Positions 6,534-38,446 of a stretch of 64,000 nt of DNA are shown here, piece by piece. Both the position numbers and the translations under genes were made by a program. The DNA lies in the NCBI GenBank assembly GCA_903825245.1, contig CAIJZX010000012.1:76059-140058 (forward strand). Reading direction: 5' to 3'. Each line of letters starts with the position of its first letter. The first letter of the stretch is position 1. The notes below the pieces were generated by a model. That model saw nothing but the letters and a program-made list of their open reading frames with translations. It was not told the DNA's origin and did no database searches. The DNA is from Candidatus Kerfeldbacteria bacterium. GTDB lineage: Bacteria > Patescibacteriota > Patescibacteriia > SBBC01 > CAIJZX01.

Positions 6534-7274
6534 TCACTTTGTGCTTCGCGAGACCTTTGTCCGCCGCGGCTTCTTCATCTGATCTTCGTGTTGATCGACA
6601 AAGGTCTGCATGTCCCGATCAAGCTTGGGCGACCATACCATGCCGAGGCACGGCAGAGCTTCCACCAGGGCTCGCAGTTTCGGGATCTGATTCCCAAGTA
6701 CGTGCATGGCAACTCGCACATTCTTCTTCTGCCGATACTGCTCCCAGGCATACACGAGGTAATCGTATCGCTCGACGAAGTCGAAAAACTGCGCTTCGCG
6801 GCGGCAGGTCATGCTGAGATCCGACATGATAACCTGCGCTTCGCGCGGGAAGCGGGAGTAGTCCTTCAAACAGAACTGCAGAAGATAGGCCTGCTGAAAC
6901 GACAGTGTGCTCCAGCCATGTTCCTTGAACAGCCGGAGGAAGGCCTTGTACTCAGCCACGTCGCTAGCCTGGCTCTTGTTGTTGTACAACACATCGCGAC
7001 GCAGAACGCCTTCAGGAATGTCGTGAACGATACAGGCGCTCAGTAGAAGACCGACATCGAGACTTGACTCCAGGCCGCTTCGGCCAATGACATTCTTCAT
7101 CATCAAGGCCAGACCCAGAGTGTGTTGCGTCGAGGTCTGACGCCGCACGCTTGGCCGGCGCCGCAGGAACACGCTCCACCGCACCACCTGATTCAAATCT
7201 TCTTGAACCGAGATCCAGGGCGCGAGTTCCCGATCGAGTTCATTCAGCGGCAGTGCTTTGCCATTTCGAGACAT
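6534..7274 (-). CDS. HD-domain protein (YfbR/5'-deoxynucleotidase-like)
   Basis: VVRW...QTSTQHT...CIVHDIPE..RDV pattern; GC-rich, GAGGAG SD. Confidence 0.7.
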   Translation of the reverse strand: MSRNGKALPLNELDRELAPWISVQEDLNQVVRWSVFLRRRPSVRRQTSTQHTLGLALMMKNVIGRSGLESSLDVGLLLSACIVHDIPEGVLRRDVLYNNKSQASDVAEYKAFLRLFKEHGWSTLSFQQAYLLQFCLKDYSRFPREAQVIMSDLSMTCRREAQFFDFVERYDYLVYAWEQYRQKKNVRVAMHVLGNQIPKLRALVEALPCLGMVWSPKLDRDMQTFVDQHEDQMKKPRRTKVSRSTK

Positions 7275-7402
7275 GCCGTCTCCTCGGTTTGGGTAAAAAG
7301 GGCAACGGGAAAAACAATGCCCGCACCTTACATCCGGTAAACTGCCCTGTCAAGATTGTCAACTACTATAGCAGGCGCCCTGTTCGGCGCCCACATGGAC
7401 AG

Positions 7403-8925: not shown

Positions 8926-10605
8926 ATGGGAATATCGCGACTACAAACAAAACAGGCAGCACAAAAACACCTTCCTATACTTCCTGTTTTCAGTCGAGTA
9001 GTGTTGCTCGGCGTCGTTGGTATGAGCTTACTGTTCTTTGGACGTTCATCACCGACACCAGCTAAAGCCGCAACGTTAGCCAACCCACCTAGTACTGATG
9101 TTTATCAGGTAAACTCCCCGCACTGGTCACATATCAATGTCATGGACTACGGTTCCGATCTTCGGCTCCTTCCAGCTGGAACGGTGCAACAAAGCGGCTA
9201 CGAATGGTACGCCCGCCACGTCGATTTTATGAGTGTCGCTATGGCCACCGACTCCTTCGTTGAGAGCCACTCCACACTTTCGGCTCAGCTTAAAACCATG
9301 AACCCAAGTATTAAAACATTCGGATCGACACTCGATCTGACCATTTGCCAACATCGGCCGTGTGCAATGGACCAGCCAGTCAACGATCTTCAAAACGCCT
9401 ATCCTGAAGATCAGTACCTCCATTTTTCCGAAGACACAACGATGACGTTTATCGATTTGGACCAGACGGTAATAAAAACTATCACTATCCCCGGCTGCCC
9501 TGAACCGCAACCGATTACTGCGGCTTGCCGCGCCCAAACATTTATTTGGCATGAGGCACGATGGTTTCCGAATTTGAATAATACAGCGTGGCGACAGATG
9601 ATGTCCGCTCAACTGATCGAAAGGTTAATTCACAACACCGATAACACTCCAGATCCAATTGACGACTTGTATCTCGATGAGCACGGATTTGATACAACCT
9701 TCGGTTACCAAGCCACCGTCACCAGCGGCGGTGCGATTCGCGAATATAATGGACTTGCGCCATGGAATAACGCCACCCCGTCAGTACGAAATGCCTTTGA
9801 CGCCGCCTACAACGCTGACGTGGTCAGCTGGCTGACCTACCTACGTGCACAAGTAACAGCCGCCGGAAAGACCATGCACATCAACACTGGTGAATATTTT
9901 ATGAATGCCCTGGAATTCCAGCAGGCATTAGCCGCCAAGGGCGTGATGACCGAATGGCTCAATGCACCGGATCACTTTCGTTTTGGGGCGCCGATGTACT
10001 CACAATTTATCGACCAGGTGCACCAGATGACTTCATCCGGCGGTATGGTGGATTTAGCATACTCGTGGTGTACCGAAATGCCTGCTGGTTATAATGCTGG
10101 AAATTATCCGACGAGCACCGATCGATATTCGATGTGGAATCTCGCTAGTTACTACATGTCGAAGGAATTCCCTAGCGAATCCGGCCGTGTCTACTTTAAT
10201 CCTAATTTATGTATCCATCCTAACGCCCCGGATCCGCTCGACTTTGAACAGCAGTGGCTGAAGGCTTACGAAAAAGATGTCGGACAACCAGTGGACACCG
10301 CCACTATTATTCAACATGGCGCCGTCAGTTGCTCTACCAATAACAAAGAATACGGTATCTTCGCCCGTCACTACACGAACGCGTATGTTCTGTTACGAAC
10401 GCGTGATGATTACAACTGTTTGGATTATGGCGACACCACTGCTGTCACTGTCCCTCTCGCCTCATCTATGGTTCTTCTTGAACCCGACGGCACGTTCTCT
10501 GCGCCGATGAATTCCGTTTCAATTCGCAACGGTGAAGCAGTCATTCTCTTTCCTGCACCGGATACAATCGCGCCGGCCAAGGTCACTGACCTGCACACAA
10601 AATAA
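8926..10605 (+). CDS. Membrane-anchored putative glycoside hydrolase (TIM-barrel, GHL15-like), paralog 1
   Basis: N-terminal TM; DDLYLDE and GVMTE acidic motifs; C-terminal RHYTNAYVLL beta domain; family call is inference. Confidence 0.6.
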   Translation: MGISRLQTKQAAQKHLPILPVFSRVVLLGVVGMSLLFFGRSSPTPAKAATLANPPSTDVYQVNSPHWSHINVMDYGSDLRLLPAGTVQQSGYEWYARHVDFMSVAMATDSFVESHSTLSAQLKTMNPSIKTFGSTLDLTICQHRPCAMDQPVNDLQNAYPEDQYLHFSEDTTMTFIDLDQTVIKTITIPGCPEPQPITAACRAQTFIWHEARWFPNLNNTAWRQMMSAQLIERLIHNTDNTPDPIDDLYLDEHGFDTTFGYQATVTSGGAIREYNGLAPWNNATPSVRNAFDAAYNADVVSWLTYLRAQVTAAGKTMHINTGEYFMNALEFQQALAAKGVMTEWLNAPDHFRFGAPMYSQFIDQVHQMTSSGGMVDLAYSWCTEMPAGYNAGNYPTSTDRYSMWNLASYYMSKEFPSESGRVYFNPNLCIHPNAPDPLDFEQQWLKAYEKDVGQPVDTATIIQHGAVSCSTNNKEYGIFARHYTNAYVLLRTRDDYNCLDYGDTTAVTVPLASSMVLLEPDGTFSAPMNSVSIRNGEAVILFPAPDTIAPAKVTDLHTK

Positions 10606-20586: not shown

Positions 20587-20661
20587 GGGTTCCTAGCTCA
20601 ATGGTAGAGCAACGGCCTTTTAAGCCGTGGGTTCTGGGTTCGAGTCCCAGGGGACCCACCA
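20587..20661 (+). tRNA. tRNA-Lys (anticodon TTT), CCA encoded
   Basis: GGGTTCC/GGGACCC acceptor, GCTC/GAGC D arm, ACGGC-CTTTTAA-GCCGT, CTGGG-TTCGAGT-CCCAG, ACCA. Confidence 0.97.
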
Positions 20662-22418
20662 GCCAACAATTTGCGCCCCGAACTCATCCCGGCGATATGC
20701 CCAAGGATGTCTTGGGGCAACTTCAATTTAATACGTATTTCATAGGGTAAAAGTTGTTTTTCCTTACGTCGTCCGGCAATGCTGTCTTCCGCAGTGGAAG
20801 GACGGGAATATATAATGATCTCCTCGATCAGGGCATGAAGAAGCTGGTCGAGCTCCCGGCGGTCGCCAAAAATATCATTAAGTGCCTCCGAGTACTTTTT
20901 ATTGAACACATTAAGGCTAGAAATGTAGCTATCTGGCATTGCGTTTTTTGAAATGAGTAGGTCTAGCTTTTCCAATTCAGCTGTTAGTAGCACAATCTGC
21001 TTCTCCAACTTCTCCATTTCCTCTTTAAGCTTCGGCTGTTTGATATAACCAAGCTTATGCTGTTCCAAGATATTGTTTTTCCTCGCTGGCATTGCATCAA
21101 GCAACTGTCGCAACTGCTCTCTTTTCTTGGCGAAGTGTTTCTTTTCCGATTGTGTAGATTTTAGTTTTTGTTGGTACTTGAATACAGCCTCTGGGTTTTG
21201 TAAAAACTCTTTTGTCTTAGTAACTACATATCGTTCTATTTCTTCGGCTGGCAATGGAATTGTAAAACAATTTATTTCGTATTTGCTCGTATTTTTTCGA
21301 GCACACTTGTAGTAATAGGCAAAATTATCAGGCGCTGTTGTAAGCTTCTTTCGTTCCCCAATCCACCGATACATTGTAGGATCAGCGTCCGGCTTGAAAC
21401 ATGCATCACATTTAAGTAATCCTCTTAATAAATATATGTGTCCTTCTCGGGGCTCATCAATGATGTTTTTTGTCTGGGCAAGTATGTTTTGGGCTTTTTC
21501 AAAAGTCCCTACATCAATGATCTGTGGCAATGCATAGGGTGAAATACTCCACTTAGAAGGTTCTACCCGCTTACCGTCTCTTGTTTTACCAAAGTAGTAT
21601 TTACCAATGTATATGGGGTCTTTTAATATCTCTCTTACAATTTCCATTCGCCAAAAGTTCGGCGAACTCTTCTTTCTTATTGCCCCTTTATATTCTTTAT
21701 ACAAGACTGATGATGTTTCAGGTGAAGGCCGCTCCTCCTCCGTGAGTATCTTCGCGATCCGCTGTGCGGAAAGTTTTTGTGAAACGCACATGTCGAAAAT
21801 TGATCTGATAACTTCGGCTTCGGCTTCGAAGATGACCAACCTCTTTTCACTGTCTTTAATGAAGCCGTATTTCATGCCCGATCCCATGACAACTCCGTTC
21901 TTAATCGCTTGTTCCCGTCCGGCTTGTGTTCTTTGCTTGATCGTCTCAACTTCTAATTCAGCGATGACACCAATGATGTTCAAAATCGCCTTTCCAAAAG
22001 GTGTAGACGTGTCTATGCTCTCTGTTGCCGACAAGAATTGAACGTCGTATTCACCGAAAAAGTCGATAACTTCTAAGAGGATTTTTAATCGACGTGCGAA
22101 ACGATCAATTTTGTATACCGCAACTGCGTCGAAAGGCCTGTCTTCGGGTGTAGAGTTTGTGAGATCCTCTTGAAGTTTCGCAAAAGCAGGTCTCTCTGGA
22201 AGATCAACGGTACCGCTAATCCCTTCATCAAAATAAATATACTGATCCCCAGCGAGAACCATTGCATCAAGCCCATTATCGAGTTTTCCTCGGGCTTTTA
22301 TCAAGCCTAGTAACGCTTCTTGTTGGAGCTTTTTTCCGTACCTCTCAACCTGCTCATCAGTCGAAACCCGCAGGTAGAGAGCGACGCGGAGAGACGATTG
22401 TTGTTGGTTTCCGATCAT
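20598..22418 (-). CDS. Large serine recombinase (integrase)
   Basis: YLRVST.EQ catalytic Ser, DEGISG, RP.F, DRFAR, recombinase domain, LLRGLLKCDAC...YYKC zinc ribbon and coiled coil. Confidence 0.95.
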   Translation of the reverse strand: MIGNQQQSSLRVALYLRVSTDEQVERYGKKLQQEALLGLIKARGKLDNGLDAMVLAGDQYIYFDEGISGTVDLPERPAFAKLQEDLTNSTPEDRPFDAVAVYKIDRFARRLKILLEVIDFFGEYDVQFLSATESIDTSTPFGKAILNIIGVIAELEVETIKQRTQAGREQAIKNGVVMGSGMKYGFIKDSEKRLVIFEAEAEVIRSIFDMCVSQKLSAQRIAKILTEEERPSPETSSVLYKEYKGAIRKKSSPNFWRMEIVREILKDPIYIGKYYFGKTRDGKRVEPSKWSISPYALPQIIDVGTFEKAQNILAQTKNIIDEPREGHIYLLRGLLKCDACFKPDADPTMYRWIGERKKLTTAPDNFAYYYKCARKNTSKYEINCFTIPLPAEEIERYVVTKTKEFLQNPEAVFKYQQKLKSTQSEKKHFAKKREQLRQLLDAMPARKNNILEQHKLGYIKQPKLKEEMEKLEKQIVLLTAELEKLDLLISKNAMPDSYISSLNVFNKKYSEALNDIFGDRRELDQLLHALIEEIIIYSRPSTAEDSIAGRRKEKQLLPYEIRIKLKLPQDILGHIAGMSSGRKLLAGGSPGTRTQNPRLKRPLLYH

Positions 22419-22532
22419 AGGACAAGAGAGGTAACTAGCCCAGAACTATGCAAACATGATTATCATACTCGTTTTATTGCTATAAAGCCATAATTGCTAA
22501 CCCGAGGTAATTAAACTATAATTCAATCTGTT

Positions 22533-22703
22533 TCCGAGGCCTAGATGCTCATTTCTACAATTTACTTAGCCTAAACTTCGGCCTATGGCCGGGGCACGGC
22601 GATCAAACCAAGAGAGGCGAACAGCTCCTAGTCAGAGCACCTCTCTTGGTCGTGCGTGGAAACGCGCACGGGTGGCCGTAAGGTCATCGCTGGCTAGGGG
22701 CTT
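22533..22703 (+). ncRNA. Candidate multi-branch structured RNA (unassigned)
   Basis: 11-bp perfect stem, two GNRA-capped stems, closing helix; TTGCTA-17-TATAAT promoter at 22494-22522. Confidence 0.5.
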
Positions 22704-22743
22704 TGTGTTTGTACAAACCCGCCGCCAGATATTTACAAAATAT

Positions 22744-22971
22744 ATGGCACAGGCAAAAACTGTTGGAATTATGAGCTTGGTTATTCTCGGCACATTGTTG
22801 CTTGGGACTACTTTTTGGTGGTTTCAGCTACGCCCATTTTCTGACCATAGGGCATGCGCGAAATATACTACTACCCAAGCAGAAAAGATGGATTTTGACC
22901 TCCATACGCCCATTTACTTTCCCGGTTATGGTGTGGTTTATGACATGTGCTTACATGGTAAGGGCTATTAA
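22744..22971 (+). CDS. Small membrane protein
   Basis: MAQAKTV start, TM, FWWFQLRP...C...YDMCLHGKG. Confidence 0.6.
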   Translation: MAQAKTVGIMSLVILGTLLLGTTFWWFQLRPFSDHRACAKYTTTQAEKMDFDLHTPIYFPGYGVVYDMCLHGKGY

Positions 22972-22974
22972 CGT

Positions 22975-23835
22975 ATGCAAATACTTCTCTGGTTGGCTTA
23001 CGCCGTTGTCGGTATATTCGTGATAGTGTTTCTCGCTGGTGGAGTTACTGCCGCTGTAAAGAATTCAGGAAAAAGAAGGCGTCTCCATTCTATAGGGGCA
23101 GTAGCACAAATTCCTGCTGATTTAAGGATAATCATGCGTGAGATTTATACTGCACATAAAAAACAAGACGTTGCACTCGTAAACTCGGTTACCGTTTCCA
23201 CTGGCATCGTGCAACTAAATAAAATTCTAGAATTGATGAAGCCAGAAAACCGACTCAAATACCTATCAGCAGGTATGCAGGGCGATGTGACTGCTTTTAC
23301 GGCAATGGAGAACGAGCTAGTATCAAGAAACTACAAGGTCAATGCGGCAAAGATTGTTACTGGTATTATCCTGAATGATCTCGATGATCCGCTTTTGAAA
23401 ATGAAAGGGCAGGAGACAGCCCCACCTTCCCCAAGTGCTAAGAGTAAAATCCTTCTCTTTGAAGATGACAAGATATTACGAACTTTGTATGAAGCAAAAT
23501 ATCATCAACAAGGGTTTGACGTTGCTGGGTATGACAATCCAACCAGCGACCCGGTGAGCGTTGTTTTGAGAGAAAAGCCTGATGTGATTTCAATGGATAT
23601 TGTCATGCCAATTATGGACGGGTTTACTGCAACCGAGTTGCTGAAAACCGATGCGCGAACAAAAGGTATTCCCATTGTTATTTTTACTAACCATGCACAG
23701 CATAAGGACATTGATCGTGGCAAGGCATTGGGTGCGGCGGATTACCTGATCAAAGCACATTTTACGCCTGATGAGGTGGTGGATCGTTTTCGGCGGGTTC
23801 TCAATTTAAATGACGTAGCAAATCGTAAACTTTGA
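22975..23835 (+). CDS. Membrane-anchored protein with C-terminal response-regulator receiver domain
   Basis: N-terminal TM; KILLFEDD, SMDIVMPIMDG, IFTN, DYLIK. Confidence 0.85.
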   Translation: MQILLWLAYAVVGIFVIVFLAGGVTAAVKNSGKRRRLHSIGAVAQIPADLRIIMREIYTAHKKQDVALVNSVTVSTGIVQLNKILELMKPENRLKYLSAGMQGDVTAFTAMENELVSRNYKVNAAKIVTGIILNDLDDPLLKMKGQETAPPSPSAKSKILLFEDDKILRTLYEAKYHQQGFDVAGYDNPTSDPVSVVLREKPDVISMDIVMPIMDGFTATELLKTDARTKGIPIVIFTNHAQHKDIDRGKALGAADYLIKAHFTPDEVVDRFRRVLNLNDVANRKL

Positions 23836-28707: not shown

Positions 28708-29127
28708 ATGGCTACCAGTAAACAAATCAAAACGGCAAGAATTATGTCCGAAAATGTCCGAAAATCGGTGTCCGCCGCCATGCGCGACGCTGGTTATTCA
28801 AATCGCTCGGCCGAGAAACCACAGCGGCTCACTCGGAGCAAGGGTTGGCAGGACTTGATGGATGAACACTTGCCTGATAAAACACTGCTAGGCGTCCATA
28901 AAGGCCTGTTACGAGACCCTGATTGGCGGGCGCGGGATTCTGGTCTAGATATGGCTTATAAACTCAAAGGCTCCTACAAAGCCACCAAGGTAAGTGTAGA
29001 GGATTCACTTGAACACTTGTCAGACGATGAGCTTGATGTGTTACTAGCCGAGCAGAAGCCAGCTATTGAACGGTATCAGCAATACAAAAGAACAAGACGT
29101 CATCCCGCTGCGCAACCGATTAAGTAA
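28708..29127 (+). CDS. Terminase small subunit-like HTH protein
   Basis: SAAMRDAGYS.RSA..P..LT.SKG and C-terminal LEHLSDDEL pattern of phage TerS. Confidence 0.6.
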   Translation: MATSKQIKTARIMSENVRKSVSAAMRDAGYSNRSAEKPQRLTRSKGWQDLMDEHLPDKTLLGVHKGLLRDPDWRARDSGLDMAYKLKGSYKATKVSVEDSLEHLSDDELDVLLAEQKPAIERYQQYKRTRRHPAAQPIK

Positions 29128-29589: not shown

Positions 29590-29722
29590 GTATATACCTA
29601 TTAGCTTGTCGTAGGGGGCTTTTACGGGCTCCTAGACGCTTAATGTGGCGGTCTAAGCCCACGCAGAGTATAACAAAGTTTAGCCCTTTTGGTATAATTG
29701 AGTTCGGGGTAGAATGTGTTGT

Positions 29723-29991
29723 CCCACCAAAAACTAGCTATTACCAGACATCTGTATCGAAGATACGGAGTGTTTGGATATGAAAAATTGGGACGAGAAG
29801 GGCCGAGCACTTGCGCCGGTGGCGCGAGAGCGCAGGCCCCGGCTCGACGAAGTGCCGTTGCCGGGAACCCCGCAGGGTCGGCAACAAGCTTCGGCGAGGA
29901 GTCCCAGGGGACCCACCAAAAACTAGCAATTACCAGACATCTGTATCGAAGATACGGAGTGTTTGGATATGAAAATTGGGACGAGAAGGGC
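29723..29991 (+). repeat. Tandem direct repeat (about 80 bp, 29723-29803 and 29912-29991) with GC-rich structured spacer and a 20-bp tRNA 3'-end copy (29899-29918)
   Basis: Direct sequence comparison. Confidence 0.9.
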
Positions 29992-36125: not shown

Positions 36126-37244
36126 CTAGCTACACTGCTCCGTATTTTCATTTGCATCTCCCGAGCATTCGCGGATTTTTGTATTTGCCTGGTTGACCGG
36201 ATTAAAGGTGTATTCGCCAAACCAATACGCACCAGCATCGCCAGAACCACAACGATAGGAAATAATTCCAGTTTTTATATCCCAGGAAATGTGCCCAGCA
36301 CATTCACCACCGTAGATTGCCCGTCGAGGCGTTGCTTTAACGAAAGAGTCTGTCGCGATGGTGTACACACCAATAAGCGATTGCCCTTTGCTATCGTTCG
36401 ACTTTTCATACACCACCTGCTGTAAACTCTCATTGAGACAAGCTTCATTGACCGCCCAGCCATCAATAATTTGACTGGAGAATTTTTTCCACCATGGTTG
36501 AGATAGTACTGTATTGTCCGTGAAGGGCGCGGCAAAACAACGCAAACGATATGCAGCGGTCGTACTTGGATGGTCTGGAATGGTAAGGGTGGAAAAAATT
36601 TCAGCCGCGATGGACGAAGAGGTAGCGCCCCATACTGTCACGTGCAACAGCAGGTCTTGTTCTTGACCGAAGAATTGAAGTTGAGATTGAACCTGATCGG
36701 CACCGGACTCAATTGCGCCCCAAACAGCTGTTCCGCTCGAAAGCGATACTTGCGTTGGCTTTGTAATTATTTCACTATCGCTTAATCGCAGCACCTCCCC
36801 AAGTCGATGATCAGAAACAGAAACTTCAAGATACATCGAACCTGGAGCGGTTACTTCCTCCGGAGGATTTGGAGAATACGAACCAAAAACGAAATGCGTG
36901 GTACTTGCCGCGGAAGTATCAAAGGTTATTGTTGGCGGGTACTTGAATGAATAACCGTAAGTTTTATCTGTATACGTTTTCCAATCCTTCATTGTGTCGG
37001 AAGCGCCGTTGGTATTACTAACAGTGTTGGTGTTAGTTGCAGCATTTGTGTTGACCGCCGTATTTGCGTTCGCTGTTGTATTCGTCGCCTTGTGCACAAG
37101 AACTGGAGTTATTGTTTCGTCCTTTTCCGTCGGCCATTGCGAATAAGCGAAAACACCAACCAAGGCGGACATGGCTAAGATGACAGTCACAACCGGAATG
37201 AGATGGCTCGGTTGTTTTGGTTTGATTGGCGTGGGGTCGGCCAT
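36126..37244 (-). CDS. Membrane-anchored surface protein with PsbP-like domain, paralog A
   Basis: TM, Asn/Thr stalk, DWKTYTDKTYGYSFKYP. Confidence 0.75.
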   Translation of the reverse strand: MADPTPIKPKQPSHLIPVVTVILAMSALVGVFAYSQWPTEKDETITPVLVHKATNTTANANTAVNTNAATNTNTVSNTNGASDTMKDWKTYTDKTYGYSFKYPPTITFDTSAASTTHFVFGSYSPNPPEEVTAPGSMYLEVSVSDHRLGEVLRLSDSEIITKPTQVSLSSGTAVWGAIESGADQVQSQLQFFGQEQDLLLHVTVWGATSSSIAAEIFSTLTIPDHPSTTAAYRLRCFAAPFTDNTVLSQPWWKKFSSQIIDGWAVNEACLNESLQQVVYEKSNDSKGQSLIGVYTIATDSFVKATPRRAIYGGECAGHISWDIKTGIISYRCGSGDAGAYWFGEYTFNPVNQANTKIRECSGDANENTEQCS

Positions 37245-37270
37245 ATTGATGTTCGTTAAAGTATTTCGAA

Positions 37271-38446
37271 TTACTTTGTGAAGGTGGAGAGAATTGTGTT
37301 GTAAGTACTATATGAATCTGGGACATCTTGTGTCCAGCTAACAACAATGTAGGAGCTACCGGTCTTAAAAAAGGTTGCTACTTCAGCTCCGGCATAACTA
37401 CAGCCTTCAACTTGTTGTGGACGCTCTTCCCCGGCAACAGTCACATTTGTATGGGACGTCAGACAGGAATCTGACGGATAAAGAGTATTTTTCGTCTTTA
37501 CTACAACCATTGGTGTTGAATACATTTTACCTGAAGTACTTTTACCACTGAAAGTAACATTCGCATCAGTCTTGACAACATTCCAATCAGCTGGGTATTT
37601 CAATGTGTATGAATTATCGGTACTCGTATACGTCTTCCAATCGGCGGTTGGGGAGGTAAAGGAAAAGGTTGCAGCTATACTTTTCCAAATGTCTACGTTT
37701 TTTGTCGCTTTCCCTATAGCACCATCGAGCGGCGCTCCAGAACTGAAATTTAATTCGACAACTTGGTTTTTGTCAGTGTTAATGAAAAGAATACTATTTG
37801 TTAAAGCACCCATATCGCCGATACCGGTAATTGAACCGGTTGCATTAACACCAGAAATCGTTTTGAGTTGTGCATCGTGCATAGCGGTTGCTCCTTCGGC
37901 TACCCAGAAATCTTTTGTAGTTGCGTGGTAAACATAGATTGATCCACCCGGCGGATCGTTATAGGCGTATTTATTTAAAGGAAAGACATTAACCGTTAAA
38001 CCGGGATATTCGGCTTCGGTTACTGGATTTACTTTAAACGTTGCAAGTGCGGTTAGCGTACCTGATTCAGAAACCACTCCAGTACTACTTTCGACATAAC
38101 CAGTTTGTTGTTGGGTTGTTGTCGGGATGATAGTGCTATAGCCCTTTGGATAGCTGAACGAAAACTCATAGGTCGAATTCGAATACGCCTTCCAATCCTT
38201 AGTTACATCAGAGACACTGTTCGTATTTGTGGCCGAATTCGTGTTAGCGGTTACGTTTGTATTTACCACAGTATTGGCATTCGCCGTCGTATTCGTCGCT
38301 TTATGCACCACCACTGGCGTTACAGTATCCTCACTTTTTGTCGGCCATTGCGAATAGGCAAAAACACCGACTAAAGCGGACATGGATAAGATAACCGCCA
38401 CGACCGGAATAAGGTGGCTCGGTTGTTTTGGTTTCGGATCGGTCAT
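37271..38446 (-). CDS. Membrane-anchored surface protein with two PsbP-like domains, paralog B
   Basis: Same N-terminus as paralog A; DWKAYSN..YEFSFSYP and DWKTYTS....YTLKYP. Confidence 0.75.
   Translation of the reverse strand: MTDPKPKQPSHLIPVVAVILSMSALVGVFAYSQWPTKSEDTVTPVVVHKATNTTANANTVVNTNVTANTNSATNTNSVSDVTKDWKAYSNSTYEFSFSYPKGYSTIIPTTTQQQTGYVESSTGVVSESGTLTALATFKVNPVTEAEYPGLTVNVFPLNKYAYNDPPGGSIYVYHATTKDFWVAEGATAMHDAQLKTISGVNATGSITGIGDMGALTNSILFINTDKNQVVELNFSSGAPLDGAIGKATKNVDIWKSIAATFSFTSPTADWKTYTSTDNSYTLKYPADWNVVKTDANVTFSGKSTSGKMYSTPMVVVKTKNTLYPSDSCLTSHTNVTVAGEERPQQVEGCSYAGAEVATFFKTGSSYIVVSWTQDVPDSYSTYNTILSTFTK

Follow-up and report, generated by a model that had tools for sequence, protein, structure and literature searches.

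A LOOT RNA at the cargo head of a Patescibacteria serine-recombinase island: a candidate two-state leader

The island and the identity of its RNA

The window (the whole stretch of 64,000 nucleotides analysed) contains a 9-kb serine-recombinase island inserted in a tRNA-Lys gene, and a LOOT RNA heads the cargo of this island (Table 1). The features expected of an island made by a tRNA-targeting large serine recombinase are present: the domains of the enzyme, a tRNA 3' site and an att repeat, the 20-bp copy of the tRNA 3' end recurring 9,257 bp away. Two inverted arms (20664-86 pairs with 29699-721) flank the 7-nt core derived from the tRNA end. From the att repeats and these arms, we place the right end of the island near 29729 or 29918. 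The recombinase ORF terminates in antisense of the tRNA-Lys, across the left att site (20598-20661, minus strand), and its last residues would therefore differ between the integrated and the excised states. By record titles, homologs of the recombinase are mostly from Patescibacteria, and in 59 of the 61 related loci with enough DNA the gene ends no more than 500 nt from a tRNA. The tRNA-Lys loci of five relatives gave no usable synteny for an empty site; the contigs from four DNA runs of one study covered the island in short pieces without joints and were uninformative on excision.

Among the cargo genes, the 139-aa ORF (28708-29127, plus strand) had no Pfam or PHROG match. Viral clusters make up most of its nearest neighbours in the Atlas, and one of these neighbours has Terminase_2 in 30% of its members; we regard this putative terminase-small-subunit-like protein as a lead that the island may be a satellite or a decayed prophage. 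At the right end, positions 29723-29991 carry a tandem duplication of about 189 bp (69-bp and 20-bp repeats). It encloses a hairpin pair of 97 nt (29804-29900), rich in GC, of which contig C2 carries a relative at 76%. The duplication may be what is left of a second integration event at this tRNA end. Further along the window, 36126-38446 encodes two neighbouring membrane-anchored proteins, paralogs whose N-termini are nearly identical.

Table 1. Positions of the LOOT RNA, its helices and the surrounding island in the window.
Feature	Positions	Strand	Basis
tRNA-Lys(UUU), integration site, left end	20587..20661	+	Rfam tRNA match
Large serine recombinase, 606 aa	20598..22418	-	Resolvase and Recombinase domains; divergent from LOOT
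Predicted sigma-70 promoter	22494..22522	+	Pattern 10/12; invariant -35/-10 columns in 6 related leaders
5' leader	22530..22567	+	19-nt gap in window row of leader alignment
LOOT RNA core	22568..22688	+	Rfam RF03000 match
P1 hairpin with conserved internal loop	22568..22600	+	Rfam match, alignment
P2 stem, 11 bp, 22-nt loop with inner hairpin (fold A)	22607..22650	+	Folding, covariation
Long-range helix, 5' strand, 13 bp, in P2 loop (fold B)	22623..22635	+	Covariation, duplex energies
P3 hairpin, GAAA loop	22651..22670	+	8/8 pairs with two-sided change, 97.8% paired
P4 hairpin, GNRA loop	22671..22688	+	Rfam match, alignment
Long-range helix, 3' strand, beyond Rfam model	22690..22702	+	Covariation, duplex energies
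U-rich tract, candidate termination site	22703..22712	+	At least 6 T in 10 nt in 84/104 copies
P5, downstream partner of tail	22713..22728	+	-14.8 kcal/mol with own tail (62nd of 104), -27.3 with best
First cargo ORF, 75 aa, one hydrophobic segment, no family match	22744..22971	+	
Further cargo ORFs: membrane-anchored response-regulator receiver; three unknown (332, 85, 1068 aa); 139 aa	22975..29127	+	
Right end: inverted arm 29699-721 beside 7-nt tRNA-end core, 20-bp tRNA 3'-end copy 29899-918	29699..29918	+	

The initial annotation had presented the RNA as a candidate novel ncRNA, not recognised as SRP, RNase P, tmRNA, a known riboswitch or a ribozyme. An Rfam covariance scan, the check that it proposed, returned a strong match to a known family, the very outcome it had named as speaking against novelty. 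Over the whole window two matches exceeded their cut-offs, a tRNA (20587-20658) and LOOT (RF03000; 22568-22688, plus strand), and the latter spans the full model (1-121) with 79.1 bits against a cut-off of 46.4 (E 3.1e-13). The RNA thus belongs to LOOT, a bacterial RNA family already catalogued, and it shows the features of the family: P1 with its conserved internal loop, an A-rich linker, P2, P3 with a GAAA loop and P4 with a GNRA loop. The P1-P4 fold is the same over its full length in the Rfam family and in the window copy, but the Rfam model ends at P4 and lacks the tail, the long helix and the U-tract described below. No other credible Rfam family was found in 22300-23000 by an E-value scan (no riboswitch, ribozyme or C4-type family at E ≤ 10), nor did the covariance models of C4 antisense RNA (RF01695) and c4-2 give a match there at this threshold.

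LOOT is typed as an sRNA by Rfam. It is a metagenomic family derived from ZWD according to a figure legend of PMC7779021, is given about 43 pairs in six helices and many cross-covariations in PMC7657543 and its preprint, and has a row in a table of PMC11701678. By term search, it is named neither in the main text of PMC5737381 nor in that of bioRxiv 10.64898/2026.10.21.760802. In the literature searched, which leaves most subscription journals outside its scope, only the Rfam papers and the CaCoFold paper name LOOT, and the main texts searched held no function or genomic context for it, part of which the supplement of Weinberg 2017 may already describe.

Another LOOT is present on contig C41 of the host genome (1.30 Mb), and a different recombinase lies 4 kb from it. 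At E ≤ 0.001, matches were found in 17/61 relatives, 41/151 genomes of the class and 34/151 of the phylum, three samples that overlap and include the host's own genome, and in 0/14 controls. Among the genomes searched outside the phylum, none of the 101 from the phylum of genome G314 and none of five single genomes had a LOOT. At least 120 stretches of viral contigs matched the pattern, one LOOT being present among the 80 loci listed, and the annotated phages gave no match.

Architecture and predicted competing folds

We collected 70 LOOT loci from genome matches (the weak match L023 was omitted) and aligned 68 of them (without L017 and L068) to build model R1. Searched against recombinase loci, R1 gave 24 matches in the 78 from genomes and 21 in the 80 from metagenomes. 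Merging sets of 70 and 44 (the cut match L191 was omitted) and removing 2 unparsed copies and 8 with an identical P2 left 104 copies; they share ancestry, and counts over them overstate independence.

All the motifs quoted in the initial annotation were found in the sequence. The segment is indeed GC-rich (GC 0.61 compared with 0.35 and 0.42 in the flanks), the promoter-like TTGCTA-17-TATAAT site aligns with invariant columns in related leaders, and the three stems with GNRA loops are present, namely P2 (22607-17/22640-50), P3 (GAAA) and P4 (GTAA). The likeness to a tRNA D-arm holds for the inner hairpin of the P2 loop (22624-27/22635-38) and goes no further, the sequence of this hairpin varying across copies. 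In contrast, the helix proposed to close the whole structure (22597-603/22686-92) was not borne out: 61.1% of the cells pair in 68 homologs compared with 62.5% after shuffling, and 453 of 500 shuffles were as high. Its strands can pair in the window copy, where the helix is present in some predicted folds and absent in others, and belong instead to the conserved P1, P4 and long helix. P1 and the 13-bp long-range helix had been overlooked.

A scan for promoter-like patterns gave 3 sites compared with 1.3 in shuffles, which is weak by itself. The −35 TTGC and −10 TA...T columns were invariant in six of six related leaders, picked by eye, and a −10 element stands 4-9 nt before an ACAAY-type motif in 52 of the 69 copies having this motif (17% in the control). 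We infer that transcription starts near 22530, 38 nt upstream of P1; the predicted 5' leader looks like a shortened version of the 5' hairpin of related copies. The folding z-score was −3.55 for 22494-22703; for 22568-22712 it reached −4.76 on the plus strand and −3.54 on the minus strand. On the plus strand, both stretches folded better than 200/200 shuffles.

Only seven columns of the alignment are invariant, all of them located in the P3 tetraloop and in the P1 internal loop, which we take to resemble a GAAA-tetraloop receptor. The P3 loop is GAAA in 94 parsed copies, as well as in 8 misparsed copies inspected by eye, and a GNRA loop was called for P4 in 82/104 copies. In two copies, L117:9323-9485 and L209:1047-1210 (both minus strand), the P3 loop is GGAA and the P1 internal loop is altered too. 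This joint change fits a docking of P3 into P1 and may be one event.

Both P2 and the long-range helix between the P2 loop and the tail covary. For the long helix, 9/9 core pairs had two-sided changes and 94.8% were paired in the 68 sequences, the structure having been drawn from the same alignment that scores it, which favours it. Duplexes between a loop and its own tail averaged −22.9 kcal/mol compared with −14.4 kcal/mol for mismatched ones (n=66), and they ranked in the top tenth in 34/36 of the recombinase-locus set kept out of the model. Four further pairs, from the U-tract to the top of P2, extend the helix and covary as well (0/500 shuffles). The inner hairpin, which hides the loop strand, beat shuffles at p ≤ 0.1 in 89/104 copies.

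When each fold was forced on the 104 copies, the energy of fold B (long helix) minus that of fold A (P2) had a median of 0.3 kcal/mol, and free minimum-energy folding gave fold A in 54 copies and fold B in 50. The energies of P2 and of the long helix were correlated (rho 0.45, compared with 0.07 and 0.00 for the P1 controls), a correlation that is partly built in since the P2 loop enters both terms. The long helix was dominant in 38/104 copies, and in 13 after read-through. For the window copy with its 38-nt leader, the nested models used here, which cannot represent pseudoknots, gave P2 a probability of 0.999 and the long helix 0.0; fold B wins in this copy only if folding starts at P1. From the topology we infer that P2 and the long helix exclude each other, since a loop of 22 nt would have to accommodate 13 bp, more than one helical turn, with the 3' end still in the grip of the polymerase. 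As the 3' end would need to be threaded through the intact loop, we take the long helix for an alternative fold rather than a static pseudoknot. The long helix and the U-rich tract directly after it, a candidate intrinsic terminator, are conserved, but the tract is interrupted by a G and able to pair itself, a weak terminator signature. No ordinary terminator or short local hairpin was detected at the tract by a pattern scan.

Recombinases and first genes around LOOT copies

A PF07508 domain was found within 10 kb of 58 of the 101 LOOT copies above cut-off (73 genomes), compared with a rough expectation of about 3.6%, and 44 of these 58 copies are divergent from the recombinase, as in the window. 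The other 43 copies, some on short contigs, have no recombinase within 10 kb. In 63 loci of close-clade genomes, all 24 LOOT matches (23 loci) were located upstream of the recombinase, 21 of them on the opposite strand, and none downstream in 459 kb; 40 of the 63 loci had no LOOT in the DNA covered, and 15 distant recombinase loci had none. This linkage supports the earlier suggestion of an element-encoded RNA. A first recombinase scan of the genomes gave no match. A profile of the window clade found a recombinase within 1.5 kb in only 2/70 loci, missing divergent families that PF07508 caught. Nine LOOT copies are 0.6-0.9 kb from a PF07508 domain (G229:C2, G032:C1, G134:C1, G288:C1, G062:C1 and others), and several of the recombinases at this distance have shorter frames (430-490 aa) that the window-clade profile missed or matched weakly.

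On the other side, a same-strand ORF of at least 60 aa lies within 80 nt in 90/104 copies (16/104 in the control), and this comparison supports the idea, also put forward in the initial annotation, of a cis-regulator of the cargo operon. A hydrophobic segment is present in 78/98 first ORFs. A Pfam family was assigned to 31 of the 97 first ORFs scanned (L019, with a doubtful ORF, was omitted), leaving 66/97 without one; the families were zinc ribbon (6), SNase (5), tRNA_anti-like (4), DUF4352 (2), one Ltp lipoprotein and others found once. No common pathway or conserved partner protein emerged among the 97 first genes. In L003 and L004, a short same-strand ORF, which by eye resembles a MerR/excisionase-type DNA-binding protein, ends just upstream of LOOT.

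The 5' strand of P2 recurs downstream, over at least 8 nt, in 30/104 copies compared with 0.95% for non-cognate pairs, and 27 of these 30 repeats lie within 10 nt of an ATG, so that the 3' strand of P2 could cover the cargo start. This repeat is absent from the window copy. A duplex test on start regions ranked 7/63 as best of all, fewer than the exact copies, since short or upstream ATGs were passed over when ORFs were called. The P5 partner of the window copy pairs imperfectly with its own tail and better with other LOOT tails, a misfit that may mean a leader swap. A leader swap, as may have happened in the window, is also suggested for L186:3871-4033 (minus strand): what precedes its cargo ATG looks like the P2 strand found in other variants of LOOT rather than like that of L186 itself.

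Proposed function and known systems

LOOT appears to be a real structured RNA of an orphan family, with a plausible switch mechanism. The reading we favour, with a probability of about 0.55, is that LOOT at the cargo head acts as an attenuator-like leader with two folds predicted to be exclusive, fold A giving read-through and fold B termination as well as, in part of the family, a block of the start codon. Once transcription has begun, P1, P2, P3 and P4 would fold in order and the GAAA loop of P3 would dock into P1 (fold A). The emerging tail could then invade the P2 loop and displace P2, and the resulting helix, which encloses P3 and P4 directly before the U-tract, would serve as an intrinsic terminator (fold B). 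If fold A were kept, the polymerase would read through, the tail would pair downstream in P5 and the cargo would be made. In about three of ten family members, the window copy not being one of them, the freed 3' strand of P2 would also cover the cargo start codon and provide a second off switch. For the trigger, the leading candidate is terminated LOOT, a short RNA that would itself act in trans; cargo would then be made in a burst when the element enters and at a low level later. A broader proposal, to which we give little credence, is that LOOT would provide the serine-recombinase islands of Patescibacteria with self-immunity. It would be a leader with two stable states and a long-range, multiloop-closing terminator helix, and its short product would act in trans through the P2 3' strand to shut off the cargo and, in some elements, the integrase start codon.

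As the main rival to the leader switch, LOOT could instead be chiefly a trans-acting antisense RNA like P4 CI or P1 C4, the exposed P2 3' strand and the tail binding targets in new transcripts, some at the integrase start, and giving self-immunity; we consider this unlikely. A target-antisense-target layout can be traced, with the P2 5' strand and loop upstream and the P5 partner and start-codon copy downstream, and such targets of the P2 strand on both sides occur in 30/104 copies, although not in the window copy. Near other ATGs (97 loci, 1.55 Mb), the P2 3' strand had 8 matches at 9 nt compared with 1.7-2.2 for non-cognate pairs, whereas the loop (0 vs 3.4) and the tail (3 vs 1.8) showed no excess; however, the 8 matches fall in 6/97 loci, correspond to about 5 events and could be relics. 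The best match is that of L106 (LOOT at 7165-7338, minus strand), in which a 15-nt exact complement covers the integrase ATG on the opposite strand 2.7 kb away (about 9990-10005, plus strand) and a second copy lies at its own cargo start, but the match at the integrase may have been left behind by a previous leader. L173 and L180 have 9-nt matches in early integrase codons. A 9-nt complement between the P2 5' strand of the window copy and its own integrase start (22423-31) was rejected as chance, since it holds in 1/37 loci. The lack of any C4-type Rfam match at E ≤ 10 also weighs against an antisense RNA of this kind, as does the pairing of the P2 3' strand in fold A, the antisense parts of C4 being loops.

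A stand-alone sRNA with one compact pseudoknotted fold, binding a protein or acting as a decoy, with the tail as its 3' end and the cargo made by leak-through, would agree with the Rfam type, the invariant tetraloop and receptor-like motif, the position of the −10 element before the ACAAY-type motif and the highly varied downstream genes. This reading leaves the balanced folds, the inner hairpin, the start-codon copies and the short distance to the gene unexplained and lacks a conserved partner protein among the first genes; we hold it to be decidedly unlikely. The multi-helix fold, the candidate tetraloop-receptor docking and the expression platform are all reminiscent of a metabolite- or ion-sensing riboswitch whose ligand would hold fold A, but the few invariant columns are confined to the receptor-like loop and tetraloop, the first genes share no pathway and mostly lack a Pfam family, and no riboswitch family was matched at E ≤ 10, so that such a sensor is very unlikely. 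Finally, the tight link to recombinase islands could reflect a recombinase guide or cofactor, yet the longest word shared by LOOT and the att region was 7.96 for cognate and 7.88 for non-cognate pairs (26 loci), the distance to the recombinase domain ranges from 0.6 to 7.5 kb, and many loci of the clade are without a LOOT in the DNA covered. Given the variable distance and the lack of sequence shared with att regions, LOOT is not an obligatory partner of the integrase. A ribozyme finds no matching family at E ≤ 10, and the ssDNA origin considered in the initial annotation is not supported, given the RNA-type GNRA loops, the conserved G-U pairs and the folding z-scores (−4.76 as RNA vs −2.61 as DNA); a role as guide, cofactor, ribozyme or ssDNA origin is highly improbable.

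As one more member of a catalogued family, the locus is unremarkable; its value lies in the testable function proposed for LOOT. If the two-state leader is correct, an RNA-only switch would be frequent on the mobile islands of ultra-small bacteria, as judged from the 34/151 phylum genomes with LOOT, its terminator architecture would be unusual, and it would illustrate cargo control by elements whose hosts have few regulators.

Transcription attenuators and transcriptional riboswitches alternate between two exclusive folds, one of which ends in a helix followed by a U-tract. LOOT differs from them in that its candidate terminator helix would close a multiloop with P3 and P4 inside instead of a short loop, and in that no leader peptide or ligand pocket was found. 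In phage P4, CI is a leader RNA on an integrating element, with seqA and seqC as complementary targets upstream and downstream and with premature termination (PMC4825925). LOOT resembles it as a likely leader on an integrating element, with complementary sequences on both sides in part of the family; the two have no sequence or Rfam relation that we found, and LOOT precedes membrane cargo whereas CI precedes replication genes. The C4 RNA of P1 and P7 (RF01695) has variable antisense segments, one of them over a translation start (PMC5320573). It is a 77-nt RNA processed by RNase P with its antisense segments in loops, unlike the paired strand of LOOT, which C4 models do not match at E ≤ 10, but LOOT would be like C4 in having variable antisense segments, one of them over a translation start. 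If LOOT does confer self-immunity, it would have evolved independently as the equivalent of P4 CI and P1 C4.
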